Assembly (NCBI GenBank): GCA_963789985.1
Contig: CAWBNA010000031.1
Coordinates: 136,043-200,042, forward strand
Direction of reading: 5' to 3'
DNA from: an uncultured Bacteroidales bacterium
Lineage (GTDB): Bacteria; Bacteroidota; Bacteroidia; Bacteroidales; VadinHA17
Length of the DNA stretch: 64,000 nucleotides
The notes under the pieces were generated by a model. That model was not told where the DNA came from, did not search any database, and saw only the letters and a list, made by a program, of their open reading frames with translations. Numbering within the stretch: the first letter of the stretch is position 1; each line of letters opens with the position of its first letter. Below are positions 47,536 through 64,000 of the stretch, one piece after another. Position numbers and translations under genes: made by a program.

Positions 47536-47546
47536 ATCAAAAAGTG

Positions 47547-47820: not shown

Positions 47821-47894
47821 AGCCGATGAAGGGATTCGAACCCCCGACCTGCAGATTACAAATCAGCTGCTCTGACCAACTGAGCTACATCGGC
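47821..47894 (-). tRNA. tRNA-Thr (anticodon TGT)
   Basis: Hand fold: acceptor GCCGATG/CATCGGC, anticodon loop TTTGTAA, T-arm GGGGG-TTCGAAT-CCCTT. There is a T29-T41 mismatch in the anticodon stem. Confidence 0.88.
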
Positions 47895-47976: not shown

Positions 47977-48007
47977 ATAAATCAAATTATTTTTGAATAT
48001 GGTTTAT

Positions 48008-48307: not shown

Positions 48308-48337
48308 AGTAGCACCTCCTGTTTAATTGATTAATAT

Positions 48338-49225: not shown

Positions 49226-49275
49226 GAAGGAACCTCTTTAAAGGACACATTATATAAAAAAATCAGCAGGAAATA

Positions 49276-49467
49276 CTACTCCTCGCTTTCCTGCATCTTC
49301 TGGACGTACTTGGCCTTCTTGATTTCTTCCCTCCGGCGCACTGAAGGTTTTACAAAAGCCTGGCGTGAACGCAATTCACGTATCACTCCGGTTTTTTCAA
49401 ATTTCCTTTTGAACTTCTTTAAAGCTCTTTCAATGTTTTCGCCTTCTTTTAACGGTACAATAATCAT
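49276..49467 (-). CDS. rpsU: 30S ribosomal protein S21
   Basis: 63-aa ORF; ERALKKFKRKFEKTGVIRELRSRQAFVKPS is the canonical S21 pattern. Confidence 0.95.
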   Translation of the reverse strand: MIIVPLKEGENIERALKKFKRKFEKTGVIRELRSRQAFVKPSVRRREEIKKAKYVQKMQESEE

Positions 49468-49494
49468 AATTGATAATTCATTTTAAACGAGGCG

Positions 49495-49525
49495 CAAAGT
49501 TAAAAATATAAAAAATCTTTTCAAA
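49495..49525 (-). promoter_or_regulatory. Candidate Bacteroidota promoter (-33 TTTG / -7 TAACTTTG) for rpsU
   Basis: On the minus strand TTTG (49522-25) is followed by a 19-nt spacer and TAACTTTG (49495-502). This lies 28 nt upstream of the rpsU ATG. Confidence 0.45.
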
Positions 49526-49704
49526 ATTTTTATGGAGTTAATTTAACCATTTTAGTTTATTTTAAAGTATTATACATTTGGTTCACACCTGGAGCAATGG
49601 TTTTCTTATTTAATAAAATTAAGATTATCAAATTTCTTTTCCAAGGGATCAGACGTTAATGTTTGGTTAAAGTTCTAGATTGTTTTATTGAAATCAAAAA
49701 TCAT

Positions 49705-49800
49705 TTAACCGCAAAGGGCGCCAGGTTTTCGCAAAGATGGCAAAGGTTGAAATTTAAGATTTTGACTTTGCGTGCTTTGTATTACTTTTTGGCTTTGCTG
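49705..49800. repeat. Word-array palindromic intergenic element, copy E (CGCAAAG/CTTTGCG words)
   Basis: Left arm: TTAACC-GCAAAG (49710-16), GCCAGG, CGCAAAG (49730-36), GGCAAAG (49739-45). A ~20-nt loop follows. Right arm: CTTTGCG (49766-72), CTTTGT (49775-80), CTTTTTGG, CTTTGC (49793-98). Confidence 0.65.
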
Positions 49801-49826
49801 TAAGATAGATCCTTCAATAGTCCCTA

Positions 49827-50495
49827 TCAGTCAAAATCCAGATAAGGCTTTATCTTTTTCGTTGTCTCCCGCGAAATAATATTGTTTCTCACCATCTCTT
49901 CCAATCCCCCGATCTTCCCCTTCAGCTCCCTGTACTTAATGATTCCCTGAATCTCATCTTTTTTGAAATACGGATGCCTGATCAAAGCCTTGTAATCAGC
50001 CCTGTTTATTTTTATTTTCCTTACAAGGAGAGAATCAGCGCAAACCTTCGGCAATACCTTTTTAAATGTTTCTTCAGACAATCCATAAACCTCCCTGAGC
50101 TGGTTAACTGAAACAAAACCGCCTATCAGATTCCTGTATTTAATGATCCTTAACGAAAGGACAGATCCTATCCCCGGCAATGCTCTCAGTGATGCTGTAT
50201 CACAGGTGTTAAGTTCAAGAATCTTCTTCTGATGGTTCTGATAGCTTTCAGTCCGTTTTTGAACCACGGTTTTTTTCGGGAAATTACCCTGCGGCTTTTG
50301 CTCAGCAACAATTCTTTCTTTAGTGTTTTCTTCAAAAATTTTCAAGGGGATCTCTTCGACTGATATAGTCCGGGCCGGAACAACAAACCTCAAACCGAAA
50401 ACAATCAACATTATAATGAGCAGGATAAATGTTGACCGTCTTTCAGGGCGGGTATAACCAAACCAGCTCTTTAACGGCTCAATAAATGGTTTCAT
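49827..50495 (-). CDS. ComEA-like helix-hairpin-helix DNA-binding protein with N-terminal membrane anchor
   Basis: 222-aa ORF with one N-terminal TM and two HhH-like segments (LRALPGIGSVLSLRIIKYR and the following repeat). Confidence 0.7.
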   Translation of the reverse strand: MKPFIEPLKSWFGYTRPERRSTFILLIIMLIVFGLRFVVPARTISVEEIPLKIFEENTKERIVAEQKPQGNFPKKTVVQKRTESYQNHQKKILELNTCDTASLRALPGIGSVLSLRIIKYRNLIGGFVSVNQLREVYGLSEETFKKVLPKVCADSLLVRKIKINRADYKALIRHPYFKKDEIQGIIKYRELKGKIGGLEEMVRNNIISRETTKKIKPYLDFD

Positions 50496-50602
50496 AGAAT
50501 TTACTTTAGCAGTGAGGCTTGCTGCAATTTAATCAAATTCGGGGACCGGCCTGCTAAAACCGGAAATTTTTTATAAGGCTGGCAGTCTGTTGCTTTTCTC
50601 TG

Positions 50603-53014
50603 TCAGAAGGGATAGCCAATCCCGAGAACAACGGTGAAATCATCGCGTAAGCTGTAGCTCCTGCTCATTATAATCCATTTCGGTCCGGATGAAATTGAAG
50701 GATCACGCAGCTTCATGCCAAAGTCCACGCGGCCTATTACGAACTTGAAGTCAAACCTGAAGCCAGTTCCGGTGCCGACGGCAATATCCTTATAAAACTT
50801 ATCAAACTTAAAGACAGATCCCTGGCGGGAATCATCGTACCTGATGGTCCAGATGTTACCGGCATCGAGAAACAATGCGCTTTCGAGTATCCAGAAAAGC
50901 TTGAACCTGTATTCGGCATTACCTTCAAGTTTTATTTCAGCCGTCTGATTGATAAACCCTGTTGAGTTCGATTTATATGATCCGGGCCCCAGGGTCCTTA
51001 CCTGCCAGGCCCTTATATCGTTTGCACCGCCTCCGAAATACTGCTTTTCAAATGGGATGGCCTTCGAGTTTCCGTATGGAATACCGATTCCAAAAAAGCC
51101 ACGGTAAACAATAGAGCTTACATCATTCACAATTACATTGTATCTGAAATCGACGTCGGACCTAATATACTGTGCAAAAGGCTGTCCGAACACATTATAG
51201 CTGCCATTCACCCTTGAAATCCCAACGACTCTGCTGAAGACCGACAAAAGGTTTCCGGAGGCTTCAGCATTAACCCTTAAGAACCAGTAATCCTTCGATT
51301 TCTGTATTTTCTGGTTGTTGAAAATAAATGAATAGTTGCCTTCGAGAATCATCACGTTCCTGTAACTGTAGGCAAGGTATGAGGAACTGTTTATTGTCGC
51401 AAGGAATGTTGAGTCAATTGACAGAAGCCTTACAAGGTTAAGCTGAATCGGGTTTACAATATGAGTCCTGTATTTATGGCCAGACCAAGAATAGCCAAAG
51501 GTCGCGTTTGCGATGGTCCGTGTATAAAGAGGCATGTTCTGATAATCAAATGCTGCAATAATGCTTGTCGAAGGGCTATAGTTCTTTACGAACTTATCAT
51601 TACCAACAAACGGGAAAAGAAACCTCGGCAGCCGCAAACTGGTCTCAAATCCATATTCCCTGGTACTCCTAAGCTGTGTGTTCTCCTGAGTAACTGCCTC
51701 AAAGGCACCTTTGAGCTTTACATTTAAGATTTCTGCTCCGTGAAACAGGTTTTTGTGCTGATATACAAGATTAAGAGCACCTCCCAGGTTACCCGCTGAA
51801 TTAGTGCCCTCAACTTCAATATTGAACGATTGCTGGCTCAGAAGAGTAAGCTGGATATTTCCATCAAGCAGTAATTCAGACCCAGGGGACCCTTCCTGTG
51901 CCTTCACCTCGTTAAAGGAGATGTTTACCAGCCTGTAGGCTTTCAATGTCAGCAAATGGTTTTGTGTACGCTCAGTGTTTGTTGCACTGTAAATGGAACC
52001 TGGCTTAAGATACAGCGACTGTATAATATAATCATATTTAATCGCCTGAGTGCCTTTTTTTGATATGAAATAATACCCTTTGTAATTTACCGTATCCATA
52101 CTTTTCAGGTAAGAGTCTCCTTCTTCAAGCATTTCTTTTGGCACAAAGTCGGGATAAATATAAATGTTCCTGATCTTGTAGGTTGAAAATGAAACATAGG
52201 TGATCCTGCTGTACTGGTCTATATTAGTGTATTTCCGTATCCCGTAGTAAATATTTACCTGCCTTTTGCCGATTGTGCTGTCGACATTAAAATATATGTA
52301 ATCGCCTGAGAAACTGTAGAAACCACGGTCCCTTATGAATCGTTCAAGACGTGAACGCTCTGCCTGAAGAACATCAACATCATAAGGCTTTCCTCTTTCA
52401 ATCAGACAGTTGGCAGAATCTGAATCAAAAAGTTTCTTAATTGTAGTGTCTTCAATATCATAATAAAGGTTGCGTACGGTATAAGGCGCTTTAAGGTTTA
52501 TGTCATAAAAAACTTCAGATTTTTTCCTGGCAATTTTGACCGTATCGGTCACTTTACTGTCAAAATAACCTTTTGATGCAACATACGACTGCAGGTTGTT
52601 TTTACTCACCTCCGTTGAAAGCGGATCATAGATGACAGGTTCCTCTCCTATTCTTCTTAGCCATGAATGCGGCCATTTTTGCTTGTTAATATTGGAAAGG
52701 TTATACAGGCCAAGGTAAAACCTTGCACCAAATATCCTCTTATTTGGCTTCTGCTTGATATATTGAGCCAGATCTGTCTTCTTGAGACCTTCCCTGCTGA
52801 CCTCCAAATGATTGTTTTCCAGAAGCGTTTCTCCTTCAGGAACATATTTTGTAGGATTACAGGAATATATTACTGAAATTATAGCTAAAAGAAGAAAAAC
52901 TCCCTGAAAAATATTTTTTTTATTTGAACTGCTTTTTTTCAAAATTTGTAATTCAAAGCCAAAGCAAAAAGCAAATATATCAATATAAAAAACAACAGCT
53001 GACCAAGGCTTCAA
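50603..53014 (-). CDS. Omp85-family outer membrane protein, lipidated TamA-like (TamL-type)
   Basis: The C-terminal bacterial surface antigen barrel ends in GIGYPF. A lipoprotein signal LLLAIISVIYSC precedes the POTRA-like region. The only ATG (53014) adds about 25 odd residues. A TTG at 52942 giving (M)KKSSSNKKNIFQGVFLLLAIISVIYSC looks like a better start. Confidence 0.75.
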   Translation of the reverse strand: MKPWSAVVFYIDIFAFCFGFELQILKKSSSNKKNIFQGVFLLLAIISVIYSCNPTKYVPEGETLLENNHLEVSREGLKKTDLAQYIKQKPNKRIFGARFYLGLYNLSNINKQKWPHSWLRRIGEEPVIYDPLSTEVSKNNLQSYVASKGYFDSKVTDTVKIARKKSEVFYDINLKAPYTVRNLYYDIEDTTIKKLFDSDSANCLIERGKPYDVDVLQAERSRLERFIRDRGFYSFSGDYIYFNVDSTIGKRQVNIYYGIRKYTNIDQYSRITYVSFSTYKIRNIYIYPDFVPKEMLEEGDSYLKSMDTVNYKGYYFISKKGTQAIKYDYIIQSLYLKPGSIYSATNTERTQNHLLTLKAYRLVNISFNEVKAQEGSPGSELLLDGNIQLTLLSQQSFNIEVEGTNSAGNLGGALNLVYQHKNLFHGAEILNVKLKGAFEAVTQENTQLRSTREYGFETSLRLPRFLFPFVGNDKFVKNYSPSTSIIAAFDYQNMPLYTRTIANATFGYSWSGHKYRTHIVNPIQLNLVRLLSIDSTFLATINSSSYLAYSYRNVMILEGNYSFIFNNQKIQKSKDYWFLRVNAEASGNLLSVFSRVVGISRVNGSYNVFGQPFAQYIRSDVDFRYNVIVNDVSSIVYRGFFGIGIPYGNSKAIPFEKQYFGGGANDIRAWQVRTLGPGSYKSNSTGFINQTAEIKLEGNAEYRFKLFWILESALFLDAGNIWTIRYDDSRQGSVFKFDKFYKDIAVGTGTGFRFDFKFVIGRVDFGMKLRDPSISSGPKWIIMSRSYSLRDDFTVVLGIGYPF

Positions 53015-53068
53015 AAAATAAGCCGATCACTAATGTAAGGATGACAGCAAACTGAAAAAATTATTCCT

Positions 53069-53836
53069 ATGATAAGCAAAAACAAACTGAATTTTGTAAT
53101 ATCTCTCCAAAAGAAGAAAGCAAGGGAGGAAGAACATCTTTATGTCATTGAAGGCGACAAGCTCGTCAGGGAGTATCTTATGAATGGTATGAAGATGAGA
53201 CTTCTGACGGCAAAGCCGGAATTCATAGGCAGTCTGCCTTCTCCGCATAAAGAGCTTATTTCGGAAATTGAACCGGCAGGATATGACGACCTGAAAAAAA
53301 TGAGTACTCTGAAGACTCCTCATAATGCCATAGCAGTTGTCCCCATACCGGACCACAGGATAACTCCGATGGAAATATTCAAGGGTTTATCTGCCGCTCT
53401 TGATTTTGTTCAGGATCCGGGCAATATGGGCACCATAATCAGGGCAGCGGCCTGGTTCGGGATAAAAACAATAATCTGTTCAGAAAGCTGTGTTGATGTT
53501 TACAACCCTAAGGTTGTGCAGGCCTCAATGGGAGCATTGCTCAATGTCAATGTAATTTTCCTGAACCTTAGTGAATTCCTGGCAATTGCAAAGGCAAAAG
53601 GAGTCATTGTTTATGGCACAGCGCTTGATGGAGAACCGATCTATTCATCCCGTCTAAGCAAAAAAGGGATTATCCTGCTGGGAAATGAGTCAAGAGGGAT
53701 TTCTCCTGATCTTCTTCAGTATGTCACGAAAAAACTTGTTATTCCAAAAAATACTGACGCAATAATTGGGATAGAATCGCTCAATGTCGGTATGGCAGCG
53801 TCCGTAGTGTTTTCAGAGTTCGCAAGGAAAAAATAG
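53069..53836 (+). CDS. TrmH/SpoU-family RNA 2'-O-methyltransferase
   Basis: 255-aa ORF. Its SpoU motifs are DPGNMGTIIR, LLGNESRGIS and IESLNVGMAASV. Confidence 0.85.
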   Translation: MISKNKLNFVISLQKKKAREEEHLYVIEGDKLVREYLMNGMKMRLLTAKPEFIGSLPSPHKELISEIEPAGYDDLKKMSTLKTPHNAIAVVPIPDHRITPMEIFKGLSAALDFVQDPGNMGTIIRAAAWFGIKTIICSESCVDVYNPKVVQASMGALLNVNVIFLNLSEFLAIAKAKGVIVYGTALDGEPIYSSRLSKKGIILLGNESRGISPDLLQYVTKKLVIPKNTDAIIGIESLNVGMAASVVFSEFARKK

Positions 53837-53910
53837 AGTAAAAATTATTCACTTCTCTTAAGGCTTACCCTCACAGTCCAGCCATATGAAACAGGTGTTG
53901 AGACATTTAA

Positions 53911-54756
53911 TTATACTATATACTTACTGAACGGGGTAATCTTTGCTGCATTTGATTTTGTATCAATACTGACCAAAAAGTCTTTTGTGCCATTCCCGTC
54001 GTAATATATTGTATCTGAAATAATTTCAGGTATTTTACCTCTCCAGTCAACCTGCACGAATCCCTCTTTCCTTTCCCTTAAAAAGCCGTTAAAAACAGGC
54101 TTGTGAACCACAAGTGTACAGGCAGGGCTGATTTCCCTGAAAGCCACCTCTCCTCCGGTGTAATTCGGATTGATCTTCATGAATGGCATGCCGGCCAGCC
54201 CTGTGGCAAGAACACCGATTGTTTCAAGAACCTGTTTCTTTTTAAGTTTTCCAGCAATGGGCAGGGGAAGAAACCATAATGAAGATCCTGCAAAAAAAGC
54301 AAGAAAAGCAAGGTAACTCCGGGTCAGGGTTCCCTGGAATGCACCCTTTGTCAGTATAAGCAGCAGAGCGGGGCAAAAGCCAAGTGAATTGACAACTCCA
54401 AGTAAAACCGGTACAAGCTTCCTGTTTTCGACAGCAGTGACAATTTTTGCAGGGCACACCTTTTTCCGGTTGCGACCTATGCTGTACCATATCAGCATTA
54501 CCGCAAATACGATATATAACACGCCCGGAACATATGTTCTGACAACCGGTGCAGTTAAAAGAGCCTTCCCGAAGTACCAGGAAAGCGTGGCAAGCACAAA
54601 GTAAATGACCAGCCTGGTAAACATAAATGCAGAAAGATCAAAAGCGATCTTCCTTACGCCTGCCGGGCCGGCAAGGATGTATGGGAACATAACCATTCCG
54701 CATGTCACCAGACAGGCTGAACCACTGCTTAATCCAAGTATGAATGAATCGGTCAT
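53911..54756 (-). CDS. Membrane protein with DsbD_2/UreH-like transmembrane domain plus C-terminal soluble extension
   Basis: 281-aa ORF with about six TM helices. Cys motifs sit in TM1 (SACLVTCG) and TM4 (GFCPALL). The ~90-aa hydrophilic tail has no family I recognise. Confidence 0.45.
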   Translation of the reverse strand: MTDSFILGLSSGSACLVTCGMVMFPYILAGPAGVRKIAFDLSAFMFTRLVIYFVLATLSWYFGKALLTAPVVRTYVPGVLYIVFAVMLIWYSIGRNRKKVCPAKIVTAVENRKLVPVLLGVVNSLGFCPALLLILTKGAFQGTLTRSYLAFLAFFAGSSLWFLPLPIAGKLKKKQVLETIGVLATGLAGMPFMKINPNYTGGEVAFREISPACTLVVHKPVFNGFLRERKEGFVQVDWRGKIPEIISDTIYYDGNGTKDFLVSIDTKSNAAKITPFSKYIV

Positions 54757-54873
54757 CTACCTTTATTGAGGCTAATTTAACAGACATTTTTAACAATCCA
54801 AAAGAATTACGGTCACCTGCCTGCCAAAAGTATAAGAAAATGACCAAAGCCAATGATATAATTGTTGATCAGA

Positions 54874-56433
54874 TCAGGGATCGATCACCTTACTTACAGC
54901 TTCTGCAGCCCTCATTCCGTCTACAGCCGAAGAGATTATACCCCCTGCATAACCGGATCCTTCGCCGCAGGGATAAAGGCCCGAAATCCTCACATGATTC
55001 ATTTTGAGACTATCTCTCGGGATTCTGACAGGCGATGATGTTCTTGACTCAACACCCACGACTACAGCTTCTTCGGTGATGAATCCTTTCATCATCGAAT
55101 CGAAAAGCCTGAATCCCACAGAGAGCCTCCGTCCGATAAATTCCGGCATCCACTCATGCAGCGAAGAGGAAGTAACTCCCGGGAAATATGAGACTTTTGG
55201 CAGTGACCACGACTCTGCGCCTTTTATAAAATCAGTAAGCCTTTGGGCAGGAGCTCTCTGAGTTTTTCCTCCCTGTTCCCATGCCTTTCGTTCAAGGGTT
55301 TTCTGCAATTCAAGTCCTGCAAGAGTGCCTGATTGACGGTAATCATTGGTATCTTCCGGCCTGACCTCAACAAGGATACCTGAGTTTGCCCATGGGGAGT
55401 TCCTCAGGGAAGGTGACATCCCGTTAACCACGATTTCGCAAGGAGCTGTGGCTGAGGGCACTATAAACCCGCCAGGACACATGCAGAAAGAATAAACACC
55501 TCGTCCGTCCACCTGTCTCGCCAGATTGTATGCAGCTGCCGGAAGATATTCACCACGCTGCTGGCCATGATATTGTATCCTATCAATCAGTTCCTGGGGA
55601 TGTTCGACCCTGACACCAATGGCAAACGACTTCTGTTCCAGATCAATGCCCCTGTTGATGCACAAGCCGTAAATATCCCTTGCCGAATGCCCTGTTGCAA
55701 GTATCACAAAAGGTGACAGATATTTTTCATTTCCGGCTGCAATGATTCCTTTTATAGCTTCTTCTTCGATAATAAAATCGATTACCCGCTTTTCAAGAAG
55801 AAAGATTCCACCGGCATCAATTATTGATTTTCTGATAGATGAAATTATTCCGGGAAGCTTATCAGTTCCAAGGTGAGGGTGAGCCTCATAAAGAATGTTC
55901 TCATTAGCTCCGTGCAGGCAAAGCAGCTCCAGAACTCTTTTGTTATCCCCTCTTTTCTTTGAGCGGGTGTACAGCTTTCCGTCAGAATAGGCGCCGGCTC
56001 CTCCCTCACCAAAGCAGTAATTGCTGTCGGGATTTACAATATGCTTACGGCTTATCAGGGCAATATCCCTTTTCCGGGATGAGACATTCTTTCCCCTTTC
56101 AAGTATTACCGGCCTGATACCAAGCTCTATAAGCCTCAGCGCTGCAAAAAGTCCGGCAGGTCCTGCTCCGACAATTATCACTTCCCTTTTGTTTGTTACA
56201 TTCTGCGGCCTGAAAGGCTCAATGACAGGCATGTCCTGATCATTGCAGGTGTAAATCTCAACTGTCAGATTAATACTGATGTTTTGCTTCCGTGCGTCGA
56301 CCGATTTCCTGATTATCCTTAAAAGTTTAATATCCCGGACTGATATTCCTGAAACCGATGTAGCAGTTCTCCGCAGTTCTTCCGGGTCAGACGCTTTTCC
56401 CGGATCGAGGTTAAACTGAAGCAGGATTGCCAT
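54874..56433 (-). CDS. FAD-dependent oxidoreductase of the COG2509 type (uncharacterised FAD-dependent dehydrogenase)
   Basis: 519-aa ORF. After an ~80-aa N-terminal domain it has the dinucleotide motif VIIVGAGPAGLFAAL. CFGEGGAGAYSDGKL and the C-terminal GLYPCGEGSGYAGGI are typical of this family. Confidence 0.8.
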   Translation of the reverse strand: MAILLQFNLDPGKASDPEELRRTATSVSGISVRDIKLLRIIRKSVDARKQNISINLTVEIYTCNDQDMPVIEPFRPQNVTNKREVIIVGAGPAGLFAALRLIELGIRPVILERGKNVSSRKRDIALISRKHIVNPDSNYCFGEGGAGAYSDGKLYTRSKKRGDNKRVLELLCLHGANENILYEAHPHLGTDKLPGIISSIRKSIIDAGGIFLLEKRVIDFIIEEEAIKGIIAAGNEKYLSPFVILATGHSARDIYGLCINRGIDLEQKSFAIGVRVEHPQELIDRIQYHGQQRGEYLPAAAYNLARQVDGRGVYSFCMCPGGFIVPSATAPCEIVVNGMSPSLRNSPWANSGILVEVRPEDTNDYRQSGTLAGLELQKTLERKAWEQGGKTQRAPAQRLTDFIKGAESWSLPKVSYFPGVTSSSLHEWMPEFIGRRLSVGFRLFDSMMKGFITEEAVVVGVESRTSSPVRIPRDSLKMNHVRISGLYPCGEGSGYAGGIISSAVDGMRAAEAVSKVIDP

Positions 56434-56435
56434 TT

Positions 56436-57281
56436 CTATTCAAAATGGAATGCAAGAATCCATATTTGGGATTTCATCTTTTCAATGGCGTTGACGAATT
56501 CCGGATGTTTTGGAGCGGGTTCATGTACCAGAACATCCCTTAATCCATTTGACATTTTGAGCTCTATGGAAAGCTTGAAGTAAGGAAGGTAAAAGTCAAA
56601 TCCGGCACCGACTTCATAGTAAAAGTCCGATCTTTTCAGCCTGATGTATATAGGCTTTTCGTCATCATATTCCTTCTTGCCTGCAAGGTCGTAGCGATAA
56701 TTAATACCGGCAATCAGATAAGGCCTGACATTATTCAGTCTGTCTCCTTTGTACTTTAATGAGAAGGGAAATTCAAGAAAAGATGATTCTATCCTCTGTT
56801 TGTCATTATAGGTTTCTGCAACCTCATCTTTCCCTGTACTGTCAGAGATTTCAAAGAATTTTATATTCCTCTGTCCAAATGAAACGCCCGGCAGAAATCT
56901 GAGATCAAAATATTTACTAATTCGTAAGTTGGTGACTATCTGAATGTTTATTCCCGGATTCAGAATACTGACGGCAGGATTTAGCCATTTGTCAGAGCCC
57001 GATCCAAGAGGTGCTTTGGAAGGAGTTATATTTAAATCCATAAAGTTCATCCCAAGGCTGAACCCGAAATGCATCCACTTATCGTCATACCATGAATCAT
57101 TCTTTGGCTTCTGCTTCTGACCGAATCCTGCGGTACTACAAAGAGCAAATAACAGGCAAATGAATAATATGGATTTTTTTCTCAAGATACCGTTCGAATT
57201 ATTATTCCTGACCAAGATAATAAACTTGTTTAAAATCCAAATATTGTATTTATTCCTTAAAGCCTGAATAAATACTGGCAA
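56436..57281 (-). CDS. Outer-membrane beta-barrel protein, PorT-family-like
   Basis: 281-aa ORF with a signal-like LFICLLFALCSTAGFGQ and alternating hydrophobic beta-strand patterns ending in ILAFHFE. A position directly downstream of ubiE is common for PorT homologues. The start is uncertain, because the ORF overlaps ubiE by 32 nt. Confidence 0.55.
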   Translation of the reverse strand: MPVFIQALRNKYNIWILNKFIILVRNNNSNGILRKKSILFICLLFALCSTAGFGQKQKPKNDSWYDDKWMHFGFSLGMNFMDLNITPSKAPLGSGSDKWLNPAVSILNPGINIQIVTNLRISKYFDLRFLPGVSFGQRNIKFFEISDSTGKDEVAETYNDKQRIESSFLEFPFSLKYKGDRLNNVRPYLIAGINYRYDLAGKKEYDDEKPIYIRLKRSDFYYEVGAGFDFYLPYFKLSIELKMSNGLRDVLVHEPAPKHPEFVNAIEKMKSQIWILAFHFE

Positions 57282-57972
57282 CCCCTAGTGTAAGCTTTTT
57301 TTGGGTAACTCCTAAAAACCCGGCTTTTCTCATCATTACCATAAATTCTTCATTATCAGGGAATTTAATGACGGATTCATTAAGATACCTGTAGGCGCTC
57401 CTGTCTTTGGAAAGTTTTTTACCGATAAAGGGCAGAATATCTCTGAAGTAGAAATTGTAGATCTGCTTAAAAAGCGGTCTTTCAGGCTTTGAAAATTCAA
57501 GAATAACTGCCATTCCTCCATTCCTGATCACCCTGTTCATTTCAGAAAGGCCTCTGCCCGGATCGGCAAAATTTCTGACTCCAAATGCTACGATGGCAAC
57601 ATCGAAGGTATTGTCCTCAAAACAGATATTTTCCGAATCGCAGTTTATAAAACTGATGATGTCCGAAAGGCCTTTGTCTTTAGCTTTTTTCCCAGCAATG
57701 CTGAGCATATTTTCAGAGATATCGATTCCGGTGATCCCTGAAGGGTCCAGCTTTAATGCAGCAATTGCAAAATCACCGGTACCTGTGGCTACATCTATTA
57801 TTTTGGGATTCAGATACTTACCTGAGATCTTACTTATTGCTTTTCCCCGCCATGACCGGTCGATGCCGAATGAAAGTATATGATTCAGGAAATCGTACCT
57901 CCAGGCTATCGAATCGAACATCGGCACCAGATGGTCTTTATCCTTGTTGAGTATTTCCTGGTTGTTATCCAT
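57250..57972 (-). CDS. ubiE: Demethylmenaquinone / ubiquinone-menaquinone C-methyltransferase
   Basis: 240-aa ORF. FDSIAWRYDFLNHILSFG, the SAM motif DVATGTGD and AFGVRN match UbiE/MenG. Confidence 0.9.
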   Translation of the reverse strand: MDNNQEILNKDKDHLVPMFDSIAWRYDFLNHILSFGIDRSWRGKAISKISGKYLNPKIIDVATGTGDFAIAALKLDPSGITGIDISENMLSIAGKKAKDKGLSDIISFINCDSENICFEDNTFDVAIVAFGVRNFADPGRGLSEMNRVIRNGGMAVILEFSKPERPLFKQIYNFYFRDILPFIGKKLSKDRSAYRYLNESVIKFPDNEEFMVMMRKAGFLGVTQKKLTLGVASIYSGFKE

Positions 57973-58081
57973 TTCAGTAAAACAAAAGGCAAAGATAAAT
58001 CATTTGCGATGAAAACCTCTTTTTCAGAAATATCGGACAAACCATTCATATAGCATATTAATCTTAAGTGAACTGTTTTTT

Positions 58082-58176
58082 CACGGAGAAAATCCGGAGA
58101 AGCACAGAAGTACCACAGAGCGATGATTTAGAAGCCTCTCCGGAATCCTGTGATCCCGATTTATCGGGATTCTGTG
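58082..58176. repeat. Word-array palindromic intergenic element, copy G (mixed CACGGAG/TCCGGAG/CACAGAG words; degenerate right arm)
   Basis: Left arm: CACGGAG (58082-88), TCCGGAG (58093-99), CACAGAAG (58103-10), CACAGAG (58114-20), at 10-11-nt spacing. Right arm: TCTCCGG (58137-43), CCTGTG and TCTGTG, interrupted by the nested palindrome ATCCCGAT-TT-ATCGGGAT (58153-70). Confidence 0.55.
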
Positions 58177-58306
58177 ACTCTATTTACAATCGCTGGCAGG
58201 GCTGTATTTACCCATTTCCGAATAAAATAAAACTCAATTATTTGTCTTATTGTTAACTTAGGACAAAGTATATATTTTGCCTATTTTTACCTGAAATAAT
58301 AAAATT

Positions 58307-59065
58307 ATGGACAAAATTATAATGATTACCGGAGCCACATCCGGGTTCGGAAGGGCTACTGCAGTAAAATTTGCAAAGAACGGATACAATGTAATGATAA
58401 CGGGCCGAAGGAAAGAAAGGCTGAAGGAACTTGAAAAAGAGCTTGCAGCTTTTAAAGTTAAAGTCCTCTCCCTCAATTTTGATGTCAGGGACAAAACGGA
58501 GGTAGGGTCAGCAATCAGAACCCTTCCCCCTGAATGGAAAAACATTGATATACTGGTAAATAATGCCGGACTGGCTGCAGGACTGGGACATATCGACAGC
58601 GGTGACACCGACGACTGGGACAGGATGATAGATACAAATTTGAAGGGACTGCTGTACGTCACCCGGGCAGTCGTTCCGTTAATGGTATCAAGGAATAAGG
58701 GCCATATATTTAACATTTCATCAATTGCCGGCAAGGAGGTTTACGAGAACGGCAATGTCTATTGCGCATCGAAACATGCCGTCGACGCTCTTTCAAGAGC
58801 TATGAGGATCGATCTCCTTACTCACAGCATAAAGGTCACCAATATAGCACCGGGGATGGCAGAAACAGAATTCTCGCTTGTCCGGTTTCACGGCGACAGG
58901 GAAAAGGCAGATGCAGTGTACAAGGGAGTCGATCCGCTTGTCGCAGAGGATATAGCCAATGTCATCTGGTTCTGTGCAACCCTTCCGGCTCATGTCTGCA
59001 TAAATGACCTTGTGATTACTCCCACACAGCAATCAGGCGTAGGACAGGTGTTCAAACGCACGTAA
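58307..59065 (+). CDS. Short-chain dehydrogenase/reductase (YdfG-like NADP-dependent 3-hydroxy acid dehydrogenase)
   Basis: 252-aa ORF with TGATSGFG, NNAG and the catalytic YCASK. Confidence 0.85.
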   Translation: MDKIIMITGATSGFGRATAVKFAKNGYNVMITGRRKERLKELEKELAAFKVKVLSLNFDVRDKTEVGSAIRTLPPEWKNIDILVNNAGLAAGLGHIDSGDTDDWDRMIDTNLKGLLYVTRAVVPLMVSRNKGHIFNISSIAGKEVYENGNVYCASKHAVDALSRAMRIDLLTHSIKVTNIAPGMAETEFSLVRFHGDREKADAVYKGVDPLVAEDIANVIWFCATLPAHVCINDLVITPTQQSGVGQVFKRT

Positions 59066-59134
59066 GATAAAAGACAAGTGGATTATTTTTATTTTAACTC
59101 TGCTTCTGTTTCCATTTGTGACTGCAGGGCTATA

Positions 59135-59890
59135 TCATTGATTCATAAATCCCTGATCGCTAAGTACCTGTAACAAAGATTTTGAAAAAGCAATATTATC
59201 AGCCTTTGTATACCTGACATCAGTGAAAACCTGAGCCAGCGTCTCCTTTCCGTTCTCATTCACAAACTGCTTTGAATCGTCCCTCCCTTCCTTCTCAGAA
59301 TAAAAATTGTCTATATCGGCTTCCGTGTAATCCTTGTATACTTCATTATGGACTATTGCCTCAAGTGGCAGTCTGTCAGGCTGGTCGGGATCCTCATCAG
59401 GCCATCCGGCTGTGACGGTCGCGACCGGAACAACACCCCTGGGAAGCTTAAGGACATCTATTATCCCCCGGGCCATGTATGTTGTTGTGCCAAGGTAGCA
59501 AATCCCCAGCCCTTTTGCTTCAGCAGCAATGCATACAGTCTGGGCAGCTATGATTGCATCAATGGCTGCACTCATTAACGACAGGAAGTTATCATAGCCA
59601 GGCTCTGCTTTTCTGAATTCACACCATTTGCTGAACCTGTTGAAATCGGCACAGAAGGTAAGCACCACTGGGGCATCAGTTATCATGCTCTGGTTGAAAT
59701 GCAAAGGAAAAAGCTCCATTTTAATGCTCTGCTCCCTTGTCACAATAATACTGTATGCCTGCATGTTCCCTGTGTTTGAACTCCTGCATCCGGCTGTGAG
59801 CAATTCATTCAAAAGCTCTTCGCTTAAAGGTTCCGGTGAATATTTTCTTATCGATCTTCTTGTAAAAAGGGAATTCATAAGAGTGTCCAT
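59135..59890 (-). CDS. Nitroreductase-family NAD(P)H-dependent oxidoreductase (NfsA-like size)
   Basis: I prefer the start MDTLMNSLFTRRSIRKY at 59890; the track start is 59941. It has the RRSIRKY motif and a CRSSNTGN segment. Confidence 0.8.
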   Translation of the reverse strand: MDTLMNSLFTRRSIRKYSPEPLSEELLNELLTAGCRSSNTGNMQAYSIIVTREQSIKMELFPLHFNQSMITDAPVVLTFCADFNRFSKWCEFRKAEPGYDNFLSLMSAAIDAIIAAQTVCIAAEAKGLGICYLGTTTYMARGIIDVLKLPRGVVPVATVTAGWPDEDPDQPDRLPLEAIVHNEVYKDYTEADIDNFYSEKEGRDDSKQFVNENGKETLAQVFTDVRYTKADNIAFSKSLLQVLSDQGFMNQ

Positions 59891-60012
59891 ATACATAAAT
59901 ATTTTATCGTGCAAAGTAAACAAATTATGAAAAGACCACATGGAATGGTGAACAGGATTTTCTTATCTTAGCATGATTCAACTAATATTTCAATAAACAA
60001 AAATATCATACA

Positions 60013-61005
60013 ATGAGCAGACCAGTAACATTATTCACGGGCCAGTGGGCTGATTTACCGTTTGAGACTGTTTGCAAAAAAGCAAAATCATTTGGATATG
60101 ACGGTCTTGAGATTGCCTGCTGGGGCGATCATTTTGAAATTGACAAAGCTGATGAAGTATACTGCAAGGCCAAAAGGAAAATGCTGGAGAAGTACGGGCT
60201 GAAGGTATTTGCTATTTCCAGCCATCTTGTCGGTCAGGCTGTTGCCGACCGGATCGACGAAAGGCATAAAAACATTCTCCCCGGCTATGTATGGGGCGAC
60301 GGTGATCCTGAAGGAGTACGCCGGCGTGCAGCTCAGGAAATAATAAAAACGGGGAAAGCTGCAAAGAGACTCGGGGTTGACCTTGTAGTCGGGTTCACCG
60401 GCAGCCCCATCTGGCATCTTTGTTATTCCTTCCCTGCAGTTCCTCCATCTATGATAGAGGATGGCTACAAAGAGTTTGCAAAACGCTGGACCCCGATCCT
60501 TGATGCTTATAAAAAGCTTGGAATAAAGTTTGCGCTTGAGGCGCATCCGACAGAAATCGCTTTCGACATTGCTTCAGCCCGGAAAGCCCTGAAAGCATTG
60601 AATAACCATCCTGCCTTCGGCTTTAATTATGACCCATCGCATCTGGGGTACCAGGGCGTTGATTATATTGAATTCATCAACATTTTCAGCGACAGGATAT
60701 TTCATGTCCACATTAAGGATGCAGGCTGGTCGGAATATCCTGCCGAAGCAGGTGTTTTCGGCGGACATACAGAGTTCGGGGCAAAGGGCAGGTACTGGGA
60801 TTTTAGAAGTCCGGGGCGTGGGAATGTCAATTTTGAAGGTATTATCAGGGCATTGAACAGGATCGGATACTCCGGACCGTTATCTGTTGAATGGGAAGAC
60901 AGCGGTATGGACCGGGAGCATGGGGCCAGGGAAGCTCTTGAATATGTTAAGGCTATTGACTTCCCGCCTTCAAATATTGCTTTTGATGCGGCTTTTGAAA
61001 AATAA
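60013..61005 (+). CDS. Sugar phosphate isomerase/epimerase (xylose-isomerase-like TIM barrel)
   Basis: 330-aa ORF. The patterns [30 protein letters not shown] and SVEWED are typical of the AP_endonuc_2 / xylose-isomerase-like TIM barrel family. Confidence 0.8.
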
Positions 61006-61020
61006 ATAAAAATCAAAAAG

Positions 61021-61140
61021 TTAACCACAGTGTGACACGGAGTTGAAATCGGAGCAACACGGAGTAAAACATTTGTTAAATCAACAAAACTCCGTGAGAC
61101 TCCGTAAAACTGTGCGCACTCCGTGGTAAATATGGTTTAA
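61021..61140. repeat. Word-array palindromic intergenic element, copy C (CACGGAG/CTCCGTG words), best-preserved copy
   Basis: The element starts TTAACC. Left arm: CACAGTG (61026-32), CACGGAG (61036-42), TCGGAG (61049-54), CACGGAG (61058-64). A 25-nt loop follows. Right arm: CTCCGTG (61090-96), CTCCGT (61100-05), CTGTG (61110-14), CTCCGTG (61119-25). It ends ...GGTTTAA (61134-40). Confidence 0.75.
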
Positions 61141-61152
61141 AACTTAAAAAAT

Positions 61153-62286
61153 ATGAAAAAAATAAGAATGGGGATGATAGGCGGCGGATTTGGTGCATTC
61201 ATCGGCGATGCTCACAGGTGCGCTTCCAGGATATGCAACGATTTTGAGCTTGTCGGCGGTATGTTTGACCCCGACCTTGAAAAGAATATGAAATTTGCAG
61301 CGGGGGAAGGAATAAGTCCTGACCGTTGCTACAGGGATGTTGACTCACTTATAAAATCAGAGCTTGCCCTTCCTGCTGACAAAAGAATTGAAGTGGTTTC
61401 AATTGTGACGCCGAACGCATTCCACTATCCCTATGCCAGGAGCCTCCTGAGTAACGGGTTCCATCTTGTATGCGAAAAGCCTATGACAATGACGGTAGAG
61501 GAAGCCCTCGACCTTGAAAGAACCGTAGCAGAAAAGAAACTCACCTTTGCACTGACCCACACCTATACGGGCTACCCGATGGTCCGCGAGATGCGTGAAC
61601 TGATATCGAAGGGCATCCTGGGTAACATACAAAGAATCGACGCACAGTACTACCAGGGTTGGATAAACTCCATCATATATGGAACGGAAAGCAGGATAAC
61701 CGGAGTCTGGAGACTCGATCCGAAAATGGCAGGGATCAGCAGCTGCATAGGTGACATAGGAGTTCATGCATTTAACCTTATCGAGTATACTACAGGACTG
61801 GAAATAAAAGAAATACTTTCGGACCTGAGCCCGGTAAAGGATGATGTCAAGCTTGACCTTGACGGTACAGTGCTTCTCAGGTTTGGAAAAAACCTTAAGG
61901 GCGTGATAAGGGCAAGCCAGGTATGCAGCGGTGAAGAGAACAACATCACAATTGCTGCTTATGGTTCAAAAGCCAGCCTCAAATGGGCACAGGAGAACCC
62001 GAATTACCTTTATTTGCTGAGCGATACAGAACCGACACGGATTTACAAGCCGGCCCACGGTTACAACGGAAAGCTTGCGGAAAGCGGACATACAATGCCG
62101 GCCGGACATCCTGAAGGTATCTACGAGGCCCTGGCAAATATATACAAGGGAGCAGCAAAATCCATCAGAGGTGAAGTTTTCGATCCGGGCGAGTTCCCGA
62201 CTGTTCATGACGGAGTAAGAGGAATGAAATTCATTCATTCCGTCGTGGAATCGAACAGGAAAGGAAACGTGTGGGTCAAGATTTAA
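61153..62286 (+). CDS. Gfo/Idh/MocA-family NAD(P)-dependent oxidoreductase
   Basis: 377-aa ORF with an N-terminal Rossmann motif (IRMGMIGGGFGAFIG) and the EKP motif (VCEKPM). Confidence 0.85.
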   Translation: MKKIRMGMIGGGFGAFIGDAHRCASRICNDFELVGGMFDPDLEKNMKFAAGEGISPDRCYRDVDSLIKSELALPADKRIEVVSIVTPNAFHYPYARSLLSNGFHLVCEKPMTMTVEEALDLERTVAEKKLTFALTHTYTGYPMVREMRELISKGILGNIQRIDAQYYQGWINSIIYGTESRITGVWRLDPKMAGISSCIGDIGVHAFNLIEYTTGLEIKEILSDLSPVKDDVKLDLDGTVLLRFGKNLKGVIRASQVCSGEENNITIAAYGSKASLKWAQENPNYLYLLSDTEPTRIYKPAHGYNGKLAESGHTMPAGHPEGIYEALANIYKGAAKSIRGEVFDPGEFPTVHDGVRGMKFIHSVVESNRKGNVWVKI

Positions 62287-62292
62287 AGAATA

Positions 62293-62388
62293 TTAACTCT
62301 GTGGAACTCTTTGCCTTCTCTGTGGCCCTCTGTGAAATTTTTTGGGTTTCACAGAGAGACACAGAAGGTATGCAGAGAAACACGGAGG
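62293..62388. repeat. Word-array palindromic intergenic element, copy D (CTCTGTG/CACAGAG words, opposite arm polarity)
   Basis: The element starts TTAAC. Left arm: CTCTGTG (62297), CTCTTTG (62307), CTCTGTG (62318), CTCTGTG (62328). A 15-nt loop follows. Right arm: CACAGAG (62350), CACAGAAG (62360), GCAGAG (62372), CACGGAG (62381). Spacing is 10-11-10 in both arms. A T-rich run follows at 62389-62406. Confidence 0.75.
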
Positions 62389-62391
62389 TTT

Positions 62392-62655
62392 TTATTTTTT
62401 CTTTTTCCGGACGAGTAAATATCCTGCTCCGGCAACAATAACCACTGCGACGACAACAATAGCAACGGTTGTTCCGCCTGATTTTTTACTCTGTTTTTCA
62501 TCCTCAGTTGAATAATATTTCTCCGGCTTTGCATAGGTATCCATGTTCACCGTATCTTTCTGCGGAGTTGGCTGCTGATTCTGAGCGCTGACCAGTGCCA
62601 GGCCACCCATTGAAAGAAGAACAACAACCGAGAATGTCATTAATGCTTTTTTCAT
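62392..62655 (-). CDS. Small secreted/membrane-anchored hypothetical protein
   Basis: 87-aa ORF. It has a signal peptide (MKKALMTFSVVVLLSMGGLALVSAQ), a ~45-aa hydrophilic Q/K/E/T-rich region, and a C-terminal SGG-TM-RKKKK tail. Confidence 0.5.
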   Translation of the reverse strand: MKKALMTFSVVVLLSMGGLALVSAQNQQPTPQKDTVNMDTYAKPEKYYSTEDEKQSKKSGGTTVAIVVVAVVIVAGAGYLLVRKKKK

Positions 62656-62671
62656 CTTATTCCCTGTTTAA

Positions 62672-64000
62672 TTACTGTTTAATTTTATTTGCAAGTTCAT
62701 CATATTTTCGTGCAACCTCGGGATCAGAAATCCTGTAAGTATCAGCGAGAGCAGTAATTGCCGGTTTATACCGCGGATTTACCTTCAGGCACTCCCTCAG
62801 AAGGCTTCTTGCCTTCATCCTGTCGGCTGGCTCAAGCAACCTCGATAATTTCACATAGGCTTCAAAGTATTTGCGGTTTATCCCTAAAACCTGTTCATAG
62901 TAAGTTATAGCCTCTGTTTTCGAATCCCTTTCAGCCGCAATGTTTCCAAGAAACATCAAAACCGGCTCTGACTCAGGGTACAGCTTAAGTCCCTCTTTCA
63001 GGATGGAATCAGCTGCTGCAGTCTGCCCATTCTTCAAAAGGGCACCGGCAAAATTAAAAAAAATCATTTCGTCTGTACAATTTTCTTTTAAGGCTTTCGT
63101 GTAAAAATCTATTGACTCTCCGATCCTCCCGTCCCTCAACGCTTTATAACCATTGTAATCGTTTTTTGATTTTCTTTCAAGAATTGTACAGATCGGCACC
63201 GAATCAGCAAAAACTGTGTGAATAGCATTTGGCGGAGGCCATTTTCTTTCTCTCAACTGATTAACCGGGATATACCTGTTGGTAATAATGGCATAGTCCC
63301 AGTCAAAGGTGCTTCGCTCCTCATTTCTCATATAAAACGTTTTGATTTCCGGGTTTTTCCTGAACTGCCACTCAACTGAATAGGTCGCTCCTACTTTTAT
63401 ATTGCCTGTCACTCCTTTTTCCTTCAGATATTTGATAAGCCAACCTGAAGCTTCGGTCTGGCCTGTATAATAATAGTCAGTTTCATAATTTCCGTACGCA
63501 CCTTTTAATCCGCCGACCAGCTGATTATAGTACATATAGGAATATACGGGATTTCTTGCCATAAAGCTTATCGGATGAACGGCGATCAACGCCATTGCAA
63601 GGAGAAGAAGCAGCTTCAGGTATCTCCTTTTCATAAGTTCAATCAGGTAATTGAATCCTGCTGAGGCAACAATAATTATTGGCGGATAAACAAAAAGAAA
63701 CTGCCGCCAGGAGCTATACAGGTTTGATTTCCCTGCTATTGCAATCAAAACCGGGAAAATGAAAGTAAAAACCACAAGCAGGTAACAAAGAGACTTACCG
63801 GAGGACAAAATTCTCTTAGGGAAAAGAAAAAAGACTGCCACGCCTCCAAGTACCAGAACCGGGATAGTGATAATCATGGATTTTAGCAGGTAATACCATG
63901 GCATAAAGTCGGACCATTCAGATCTTCCTTCAAATATCTGCCTGAATGTATCAGGGTAATGTGCCATCACCCGAAGCGATTCCAAAACATTCCTGAATGG
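62672..64000 (-). CDS. C-terminal part of a membrane glycosyltransferase-like (GT39/ArnT/PMT_2-type) protein with TPR repeats; 5' end lies outside the window
   Basis: The reading frame stays open to the window edge; the track start at 63985 is a TTG. Several TM helices are followed by a periplasmic domain and 3-4 TPR-like repeats (YYEQVLGINRKYFEAYVKLSRLL...). Confidence 0.55.
   Translation of the reverse strand, partial: PFRNVLESLRVMAHYPDTFRQIFEGRSEWSDFMPWYYLLKSMIITIPVLVLGGVAVFFLFPKRILSSGKSLCYLLVVFTFIFPVLIAIAGKSNLYSSWRQFLFVYPPIIIVASAGFNYLIELMKRRYLKLLLLLAMALIAVHPISFMARNPVYSYMYYNQLVGGLKGAYGNYETDYYYTGQTEASGWLIKYLKEKGVTGNIKVGATYSVEWQFRKNPEIKTFYMRNEERSTFDWDYAIITNRYIPVNQLRERKWPPPNAIHTVFADSVPICTILERKSKNDYNGYKALRDGRIGESIDFYTKALKENCTDEMIFFNFAGALLKNGQTAAADSILKEGLKLYPESEPVLMFLGNIAAERDSKTEAITYYEQVLGINRKYFEAYVKLSRLLEPADRMKARSLLRECLKVNPRYKPAITALADTYRISDPEVARKYDELANKIKQ

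Follow-up and report, generated by a model that had tools for sequence, protein, structure and literature searches.

The exemplar element and its building block

The window considered here is a stretch of 64,000 nucleotides (nt) from an uncultured Bacteroidales bacterium (assembly GCA_963789985.1, contig CAWBNA010000031.1, positions 136,043 to 200,042), and all positions below count from its first letter. At 61021-61140 it carries a long intergenic palindrome, taken as the exemplar of a family of elements built from short tandem words. The palindrome lies between a gene encoding a xylose-isomerase-like TIM-barrel protein (60013-61005, + strand) and a gene encoding a Gfo/Idh/MocA oxidoreductase (61153-62286, + strand). 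An earlier note, made from the letters alone, described it as two arms of tandem units around a loop, and this layout matches the sequence letter for letter from 61021 to 61140:

61021-61064, left arm: head TTAACC (61021-61026) and four words, CACAGTG (61026), CACGGAG (61036), a degenerate tCGGAG (61049) and CACGGAG (61058)
61065-61089, loop: about 25 nt, with a small internal stem, TTTGTT/AACAAA
61090-61140, right arm: CTCCGTG (61090), CTCCGT (61100), CTGTG (61110) and CTCCGTG (61119), with GGTTTAA (61134-61140) at the right end

The left-arm words, which end in GGAG or AGTG, are roughly 10-12 nt apart. As RNA, the element is predicted to fold into a single long interrupted hairpin with a minimum free energy (MFE) of -42.4 kcal/mol, as against -24 +/- 3.4 for shuffled sequences (z -5.4), and none of 200 shuffles was as stable.

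The exemplar and its relatives can be decomposed into one building block, an oriented half-module (S) measuring some 30-50 nt. It consists of a head, TTAAC(C) or one of the variants TTGAACC and TTCACC, followed by two to five tandem 7-nt words of the form C-R-C-N-R-A-G, with 1-5 nt between words. The half-module may be found solo, tail-to-tail as S-loop-S' (type I) or head-to-head as S'-loop-S (type II). Writing W for a word and R for its counterpart in the opposite arm, type I is TTAACC-(W)n-loop-(R)n-GGTTAA, and type II is (R)n-GGTTAA-loop-TTAACC-(W)n. Since a palindrome of the form L-loop-L' reads alike on both strands, the two types cannot be interconverted by flipping the strand, and the single common architecture proposed in the earlier note had in fact merged two. 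The window copies at 61021, 860, 49705 and 58082 are of type I, and those at 62293, 9-134 and 17296 are of type II.

In paired elements from Bacteroidales, arms mostly have 3-4 words, not the 4-5 units first proposed, and the innermost words of the two arms are separated by a median of 21 nt. The spacing first given as 10-11 nt is right as to its mode, a start-to-start distance of 10 nt, and too narrow as to its range, which extends from 8 to 12 nt and gives way to 9 nt in GC-rich relatives. Four positions of the word (C1, C3, A6 and G7) are invariant and two are confined to purines, across phyla and including solo modules. The centers of type II elements resemble inverted half-sites, e.g., GGTTAA-N4-13-TTAACC; the distance from head to head is not fixed.

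Copies within the window

The six further copies pointed out earlier are present, every one between open reading frames (ORFs); one arm has words that fit C[AG]C-N-[AG]AG, and the opposite arm has complementary ones. The quality of their folds varies widely, as judged by MFE relative to shuffles (z):

9-134, type II: CCTTTG/CTTATGG words, GGTTAAAG...TTTAATC, CACAAAG/CACCAAG words; z +0.8; upstream of a nitroreductase gene, its word arrays discernible and its fold no better than that of shuffles
860-950, type I: TTAACCACGGTG, CACGGAG ... CTCTGTG ... GTGGTTTAA; z -2.9; between convergent nitroreductase and alpha-L-fucosidase genes, its first 23 nt identical with those of the exemplar
17296-17392, type II, degenerate: CTTTGTG-like words, GGTTAAAC, CACAAAG-like words; z -1.6; between radical-SAM activase and pyruvate-formate-lyase-like genes, both on the - strand
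49705-49800, type I, degenerate: word CGCAAAG/CTTTGCG; z -1.9; immediately 3' of a ComEA-like HHH gene (49827-50495, - strand)
58082-58180, type I-like, mixed words: CACGGAG, tCCGGAG, CACAGAa, CACAGAG / CTCTCCGG, CCTGTG, CTGTG; z -2.3
58155-58168, 14-nt mini-palindrome: CCCGATTTATCGGG, nested in the right arm of the preceding copy
62293-62388, type II: TTAAC, CTCTGTG-type words, loop, CACAGAG/CACGGAG words; MFE -44.7 kcal/mol, z -6.3; begins 7 nt past the stop codon of the oxidoreductase gene and is followed by a T-rich run

With seven copies in 64 kb, the density is about one per 9 kb. Strict words are not enriched over the window as a whole (80 observed, about 90 expected from composition); they concentrate at the seven intergenic copies. 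Two-word clusters at 11200, 29705 and 46860 were taken as chance. Two more general scans were discarded: a sliding-window MFE over the whole window, because coding DNA folds as well as the elements do, and a generic search for k-mers present three times along with three reverse complements, which gave 40 clusters against about 20 in shuffles and was too noisy, so that the CRCNRAG definition was used instead.

The ten ORFs flanking the window copies are housekeeping genes, one XerC/D-like integrase (recombinase) among them. They include genes for the nitroreductase, the fucosidase, the pyruvate-formate-lyase-like enzyme and its activase, the XerC/D-like recombinase, the ComEA-like protein, UbiE, a short-chain dehydrogenase, the TIM-barrel isomerase-like protein and the Gfo/Idh/MocA oxidoreductase.

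Abundance and placement in related Bacteroidales

The closest relatives of the 377-amino-acid oxidoreductase are 80-86% identical and come from metagenome-assembled genomes (MAGs) labeled Bacteroidales or Rikenellaceae; a metagenome scan brought up no relative nearer than 86% amino-acid identity. In the window and 80 related loci (designated below by L and a number), there are 26-31 strict two-arm clusters, with none in shuffles. Paired elements number 48 in about 2 Mb of related Bacteroidales DNA, and again shuffles have none, so the seven copies of the window belong, as had been surmised, to a genuine repeat family.

The intergenic placement seen in the window extends to the related loci, where 53 of 55 elements lie outside called ORFs though 91% of the DNA is coding. 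A preference for the 3' ends of genes is borne out as well by an excess of convergent flanking genes: 21 elements lie between convergent, 24 between co-directional and 5 between divergent genes, whereas the baseline is 17%, 70% and 13%, respectively (p = 1e-5, the counts including orthologous copies and so not being fully independent). Solo arrays are found in L029, L032 and L037, and in the first two of these the half-module lies directly upstream of a start codon.

Matching between the two arms

The word differs from copy to copy, as had been noticed, yet both arms of a copy tend to carry one word type. In 48 of 79 elements the two arms agree in their majority word, while permuting the partners yields a mean of 11.3 such elements and a maximum of 21 in 2000 permutations. 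In the earlier note, this was taken as compensatory change, and structure or helical-phase periodicity, rather than primary sequence, as what seems to be maintained. That view amounts to a structured RNA, in which the hairpin itself is selected (e.g., as terminator, processing site or stabilizer of 3' untranslated regions), and its arms co-evolve by compensatory substitution. The shared word type is what such a model would have, and the strong folds of the exemplar and of the copy at 62293-62388 and the enrichment at convergent gene ends speak for it as well.

The matching, however, is not specific to base pairs. In 39 elements with internally heterogeneous arms, the variable positions gave 259 complementary matches out of 351 in the natural register, as against 262.6 +/- 4.8 when the words of one arm were permuted in order (P = 0.79). 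In 14 regular three-plus-three elements, the figure was 99 of 126 in register and 102 and 97 with a shift of one and two words. Five orthologous type II copies (L003, L020, L021, L238 and L244), folded together by RNAalifold, gave a consensus of 34 pairs, 2 of them with double changes, and a covariation term of +0.56. In this alignment the words are nearly invariant, and the spacers and loop are free to differ. Conserved words amid drifting unpaired spacers would suit a structured RNA, as would the one true compensated pair in the series (see Discussion). Taken together, the register tests and the orthologues give no excess of covariation, and they do not support compensation as evidence for structure. 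The match between arms is a property of the element as a whole, not of its individual base pairs. Once all words of an element are of one type, the arms would be complementary without any pair-by-pair compensation.

Half-modules that have no partner arm are informative in this regard. They retain C1, C3, A6 and G7, and related solo modules from phage contigs (L092, L100, L104 and L111) vary at word positions 2 and 4 alone. A constraint on primary sequence thus acts without pairing, and the word pattern is kept where a structured RNA would have nothing to pair with. Nor does the fold favor a sense transcript: where a copy has co-directional neighbors, folding is more stable for the antisense strand in 19 of 24 elements and for the sense strand in 5 (Wilcoxon p = 0.02, a result that may not be robust, since some copies are orthologous), and with the antisense strand usually the stabler folder, G-U pairs do not indicate a sense-strand RNA. 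Also, for three of the window's seven copies the fold is little or not at all better than that of shuffles, modules are found in both orientations relative to genes (56 sense, 45 antisense), there is no preference for U-tracts 3' of the hairpin, and no Rfam family matches. On balance, a structured RNA seems an unlikely explanation.

Alternatively, the words may be read as double-stranded DNA, bound by a conserved protein such as a nucleoid-associated protein, an accessory factor of a recombinase or a roadblock, with the inverted layout serving to work from both sides. Such an array of binding sites would agree with the four invariant and two purine-only positions, kept across phyla and in solo modules, with the conserved words and free spacers, with the frequency of both orientations relative to genes and with the half-site-like centers of type II elements (GGTTAA-N4-13-TTAACC). 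It agrees less well with the word spacing, which varies from 8 to 12 nt within one set of genomes and is neither fixed nor helically phased, or with the variable distance between inverted heads. (Periodicity in phase with the helix had been offered earlier as an alternative thing to be maintained; the idea fails, given a period of 8-12 nt here and of 9 nt in other phyla.) A shared binder would also leave unexplained why positions 2, 4 and 5 vary between elements while remaining uniform within one, and we know of no candidate protein spanning Bacteroidota, Gemmatimonadota, Cyanobacteria and phages. This explanation, too, is improbable, to about the same degree as a structured RNA.

Half-modules in phages, plasmids and other phyla

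The pattern of TTAACC plus three words occurs in at least 120 viral contigs of IMG/VR, while a reversed pattern of the same composition occurs in none. Among the matches listed, the contigs have a median G+C of 0.59, and the modules are almost always solo (138 of 159). A typical viral module has three words, 2-nt purine spacers and a 9-nt period; the spacers are nearly always purine, and GGAGG strings are frequent. Relative to flanking genes, solo modules are oriented sense in 56 cases and antisense in 45. Again among the matches listed, 37 of 159 modules (a subset of those in sense orientation) have a TTAACC head whose TAA serves as the stop codon for a long ORF upstream, and in 31 of 159 a long ORF begins 0-10 nt after the last word.

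A BLAST search of a phage database with a 33-nt module as query found no match. A 33-nt module searched against plasmid records led to the following:

Gemmatirosa kalamazoonensis megaplasmids (Gemmatimonadota, G+C 0.73): type I palindromes in 10 and 16 places
Bacteroides ovatus replicon: a palindrome of type I, flanked by gmd and fcl
Bacteroides finegoldii replicon: solo form
Calothrix plasmids: solo and type II forms

The solo copies of Calothrix directly precede an ATG, as do those of Bacteroidales.

One might see in these modules, chiefly the solo ones of phages, an intercistronic cassette related to translation, whose head provides a TAA stop and whose purine-rich GGAG words hold or recruit ribosomes. 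The positions of the head and of the following ORFs (37 and 31 of the 159 modules listed) invite the idea, and so do the purine spacers, the GGAGG strings and the solo copies set directly before ATG in Calothrix and Bacteroidales. Also, two insertion alleles described below keep the last codons of the upstream protein and add a stop. But about 45% of the modules are antisense to their flanking genes, the AT-rich words of Bacteroidales (CACAAAG and CGCAAAG) have no Shine-Dalgarno core, and the paired hairpins of the window are left unexplained. Moreover, Bacteroidia make little use of Shine-Dalgarno pairing. A role of this kind as the basis of the family is accordingly very doubtful, more so than either a structured RNA or an array of binding sites.

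Gain, loss, growth and dispersal

Arrays gain and shed whole words: one orthologous array, a single word long in L082, comprises three words in L199, through an 18-nt insert. Whole modules come and go as well. Phage contigs whose flanks are 85-96% identical differ by discrete modules of 41-54 nt, with filled sites in some and empty sites in others. One insertion event, common to four contigs, has the direct repeat TCTTTT (6 bp) at its flanks. Two insertion events lie at the extreme end of an upstream ORF, where the last codons are kept and a new stop is brought in.

Within Bacteroidales, the intergenic site of one conserved co-directional gene pair is found in six states:

empty, 16 nt: L017 and L261, with stop and start read as 2 nt apart
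type II element, word CACAGAG: five genomes
solo array, word CGCAAAG: L037
type I element, word CGCAAAG: L047
type II element, word CACAAAG: L229
unrelated G/C-rich motif: other relatives

Elements are thus gained and lost at permissive intergenic sites, and related copies are dispersed within genomes. Gemmatirosa copies at unlinked sites have in common the loop GAGAACCACGTCAATGGGTTTC or its reverse complement, some of them being nested, and two copies in L040 have the same word order and part of their spacers in common.

It is conceivable that none of this involves spread, and that arrays and their inverted partners are born in place, arising repeatedly by replication slippage and snap-back without any specific function. 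The growth from one word to three between related contigs would be expected of such a process, as would the absence of common loops among the window copies and the fact that the same sites in relatives hold quite different arrays, e.g., purine-rich repeats of 8 nt. However, birth in place does not account for the recurrence of head plus CRCNRAG across phyla, in at least 120 viral contigs with no match to the reversed control, nor for dispersed Gemmatirosa copies that conserve a loop, nor for whole headed modules that appear as discrete insertions of 40-55 nt. As a general account of the family, it is highly improbable, on a level with the translational cassette.

Comparison with known elements

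Rfam, consulted for the window, 7 MAG loci and 8 viral loci, has no family that matches the elements. In the window it recognized only tRNAs, the matches at E <= 10 being just sub-threshold miRNA or snoRNA hairpins. Keyword searches of the open literature, with ISfinder, Dfam and most subscription literature outside their scope, turned up analogues and no description of the family, and a literature search by sequence string led only to primers.

The earlier view that the elements are not CRISPR-like (short palindromic repeats, clustered and regularly interspaced) is upheld. CRISPR arrays consist of direct repeats of 24-48 nt with unique spacers of similar length, whereas the elements have 7-nt units, spacers of 1-5 nt and inverted arrays.

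Closer comparison is possible with repetitive extragenic palindromes (REPs) and the bacterial interspersed mosaic elements (BIMEs) and REPINs composed of them, known from Proteobacteria. Like these, the word elements are short, high in copy number and strictly intergenic, favor 3' ends of genes, occur as single or inverted hairpin pairs in mosaic or nested arrangements and evolve within a genome. They also agree in being extragenic inverted doublets of high copy number, with seven copies in the 64 kb of the window and, in about 2 Mb of related DNA, 48 paired elements. The REP unit, however, is an imperfect palindrome of 20-40 nt with GTAG or CGTC, and the word elements have neither tag; their arm is a head plus tandem direct 7-nt words and is not self-complementary. 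Unlike REPs, they vary in word between copies, and the half-module spans several phyla and phages. REP/REPIN genomes also carry a gene for a REP-associated tyrosine transposase (RAYT, an IS200/IS605-like Y1 transposase), typically flanked by repeats; there is none among the ORFs beside the window copies.

MITEs (inverted-repeat transposable elements of miniature size) resemble the word elements in being small, non-coding and intergenic, and type I has inverted ends (TTAACC...GGTTAA). Insertion polymorphism is likewise present, with clean empty sites in phage contigs and Bacteroidales MAGs. But in type II the heads are central and the outer ends undefined, while solo modules have a single head, and instead of a target duplication of fixed length there are 6 bp (TCTTTT) in one event and 0-1 bp in others. 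No transposase gene lies beside any copy examined, and there is no known parent insertion sequence. The Correia elements of Neisseria are grouped with MITEs as comparable small intergenic elements. The nearest published analogue in Bacteroidales is BrickBuilt of Porphyromonas gingivalis, a MITE containing a minisatellite (PMC4596501), which also combines tandem units with leader and tail ends; it is set apart, by its description, by units of 23 nt that adjoin one another and run in direct orientation only. The 77-bp inverted repeat of P. gingivalis (PMC3969353), to judge from its text, is a different, single-locus object.

Heptamer arrays, such as the short tandemly repeated repetitive (STRR) sequences of cyanobacteria, TAACTGA repeats and long simple sequence repeats, share with the elements their tandem 7-nt intergenic words, often just before start codons, and a scattered occurrence among phyla for which no mechanism is known, and they adjoin S modules in phage contigs. 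TAACTGA repeats occur in Beggiatoaceae, Cyanobacteria and Bacteroidetes (PMC4679880). But STRR and TAACTGA arrays are contiguous, with a 7-nt period, one fixed word and direct copies only, while the elements have a period of 8-12 nt (9 nt when GC-rich), never 7, and a conserved head, a varying word and usually an inverted partner.

The attC sites of integrons are imperfect palindromes of 60-140 nt at the 3' ends of genes and variable in sequence, and some element ends (ATTTAAC, TTTAAC / GTTAAAT) fit their core sites, RYYYAAC / GTTRRRY. Many heads do not. The copies lie among housekeeping genes, e.g., for pyruvate-formate-lyase, rather than in cassette arrays by an integrase, and attC sites are not built of words. 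With intrinsic terminators, the elements have in common a symmetric hairpin after the stop codon, the convergent enrichment and, in the copy at 62293-62388, a T-run. Much the same holds for Neisseria, where DNA uptake sequences in inverted pairs also serve as terminators. The elements differ in their long, interrupted, AT-rich stems, their loops of 15-25 nt, the lack of a general U-tract and their presence inside operons as well.

Several other candidates were set aside on inspection and on general background. A T3/T7-type phage promoter (from a resemblance to TTAACC..CACTAAAG) and a sigma-70 or Bacteroidetes -33/-7 promoter have no positional support, in that modules tend to adjoin start codons or lie antisense. 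The XerD half-site has only ATTTAAC in common, and the spacing of heads is variable. Chi, DNA uptake sequences and TRAP or CsrA sites would call for less degenerate words or for another period. Coding repeats, suggested by 9 nt as three codons, are at odds with the variable spacing in Bacteroidales, and the resemblance of GGTTCAA to the T-loop of tRNA comes without a complementary stem.

Other repeats and features

Relatives without a word hairpin often have other tandem arrays of short words at the same intergenic positions, with a period of about 8 nt. These are purine-rich on the sense strand right past the stop codon, e.g., GGCGCAGG/GCACAGGG about 12 times, GAAGACNG about 15 times and ATAAAAGA. 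They lie beside orthologues of the gene at 61153-62286 in L006 (11132-11330), L010, L012, L013, L016, L023, L029, L031, L034, L036 and L038. In L040, CACAGAG words are found with an 8-nt period.

A second intergenic repeat family, consisting of a C-rich/G-rich hairpin and then a further G-rich strand, occupies the same permissive sites:

form CCCCTCC-nnn-GGAGGGG-nn-AGGGGTGGGTT: L006, L016, L029, L032, L036 and L040
form GCCCCCCAAATGGGGGGTTTGGGGGGT: L011, L019, L020, L034 and L037
family also present: L044, L051 and L219

It has no match in Rfam. It seems to resemble the intrastrand triplex motifs of Holder et al. 2015 (PMC4666352).

The mini-palindrome CCCGAT(AGCT)ATCGGG, of 14-16 nt, is found inside word elements in three cases, that of 58082-58180 included, and inside G/C-rich hairpin motifs as well. 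Its sites are 58155-58168 in the window, 12392 and 18447 in L005, 1496 in L035 and 11312 in L013. It looks like a yet smaller element that inserts into other elements. Further nesting is seen where small G+C-rich hairpins, cccgccgaagcggg (L238, 11485-11505) and cccgccgaagctttagcgcaggtgg (L047, about 8990-9015), break one arm of otherwise orthologous word elements.

In the viral contigs L087, L098, L120, L128 and L130, the stretch from the solo module to the start codon holds contiguous heptamer arrays (CTTAAAA, AACCTGA and CGTTGAA/CGTTTAA), which recall TAACTGA-type repeats (PMC4679880). A hairpin-forming motif, TTGACAC(G/C)CC...GGCGTGTCAA, recurs between genes in GC-rich phage contigs (L082, L091, L102, L115, L122, L125, L132 and others), and all three aligned insertion sites adjoin it.

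The window has some further features. At 4166-4200, beside the start of the gene at 2420-4165 (- strand), words like TTTTCAGA occur about four times (tttttcagattttcagttttcacattttcaaa). Two adjacent strong hairpins, ATGCCCCCCGG...CTGGGGGGCA and TCTCCGGAGTC...GACTCCGGA, occupy 4411-4520 in an intergenic region of 548 nt; the segment 4401-4530 has an MFE of -48.3 kcal/mol, and the two hairpins have no relation to the word family. At 46077-47894 and 34854-47403, the window has five tRNA genes on the - strand and, nearby, a putative large conserved cluster (tuf, a block of ribosomal-protein genes and ORFs of the size of rpoB and rpoC), read from ORF sizes and gene order. The cluster has no word element inside it.

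Discussion

The reading that we favor, to which we give an even chance of being right, is that the family consists of miniature non-coding intergenic elements, akin to REP/BIME or MITE elements, built from an oriented half-module and apparently unnamed. An element would begin with few founder units, or be homogenized later, leaving all its words, in both arms, of one type. C1, C3, A6 and G7 would then be kept by a constraint at the level of sequence, probably recognition by a trans-acting factor that copies or binds the module, reading the conserved C-C--AG pattern together with the head. The paired form may be tolerated at the 3' ends of genes and possibly used there as a symmetric hairpin, which might stabilize the 3' ends of mRNA or act as a partial, bidirectional transcription stop. 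In their behavior the elements are like REP/BIME elements and MITEs, but they lack defining traits of both. Each of the four rival explanations discussed above covers some of the data and fails on others.

A number of observations weigh against this reading. Among the genes beside the copies examined, there is no transposase, RAYT or other partner protein, the window flanks being housekeeping genes and the window covering only 64 kb of the source genome. Apart from the 23 nt common to 860 and 61021, the seven window copies have no loop or spacer in common, so descent from one master is not visible in this genome. Flanking repeats are inconsistent, the insertion events other than that with TCTTTT showing 0-1 bp, and this does not bear out classical transposition, by cutting or copying, with a target duplication of fixed length. 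The recurrence of different word arrays at one intergenic site across species could reflect birth in place. The five orthologues contain one clean compensated pair, in which UA occurs three times, AU once and UU, the intermediate, once (L020 has CTCAGTG/CACTGAG, and L238 is at the half-step), and this suggests some selection for pairing.

As to a role as terminator or stabilizer, T-runs follow the hairpin on 38 of 106 sides and A-runs on 34 of 106, a simple scan for intrinsic terminators flags none of the elements, and several copies separate genes that are coupled stop-to-start in element-free relatives. (Terminator-like sites overall number 13 in 48000-64000, as against 14.0 +/- 3.7 in shuffles.) Since copies lie inside operons, U-tracts are no commoner than A-tracts and the terminator scan is negative, a strong terminator role is unlikely.

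A bolder version, which we regard as possible but hold only tentatively, puts the half-module itself at the center. TTAAC(C) plus CRCNRAG words may be a previously unrecognized and very small element that crosses phyla, copied to gene boundaries by a non-classical route, often with its own stop, and growing by slippage of words, or else it may be read by a conserved nucleic-acid-binding factor. Phages would be its carriers, and the hairpins of the window merely its paired form.

Whichever of these holds, one caution applies to method. Apparent compensation between arms across the copies of a repeat can stem from homogeneity of the element as a whole rather than from selection on base pairs, and since homogeneity can mimic compensation, claims of covariation need controls by register or by orthologues.

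The solo modules pose a puzzle of their own, a short, oriented, word-built signal conserved across phyla and lying at gene boundaries in either orientation, without a known reader. How intergenic arrays of short words arose in Cyanobacteria, Beggiatoaceae and Bacteroidetes has been asked for a long time. Carriers that can be cultured (Bacteroides ovatus, B. finegoldii, Gemmatirosa and Calothrix) open the element to experiment. Should the family prove to be as common as the scans indicate, then a sizeable share of the intergenic DNA of uncultured Bacteroidales, of some Bacteroides at least, of Gemmatimonadota and Cyanobacteria and of their phages would consist of an element that current annotation ignores.

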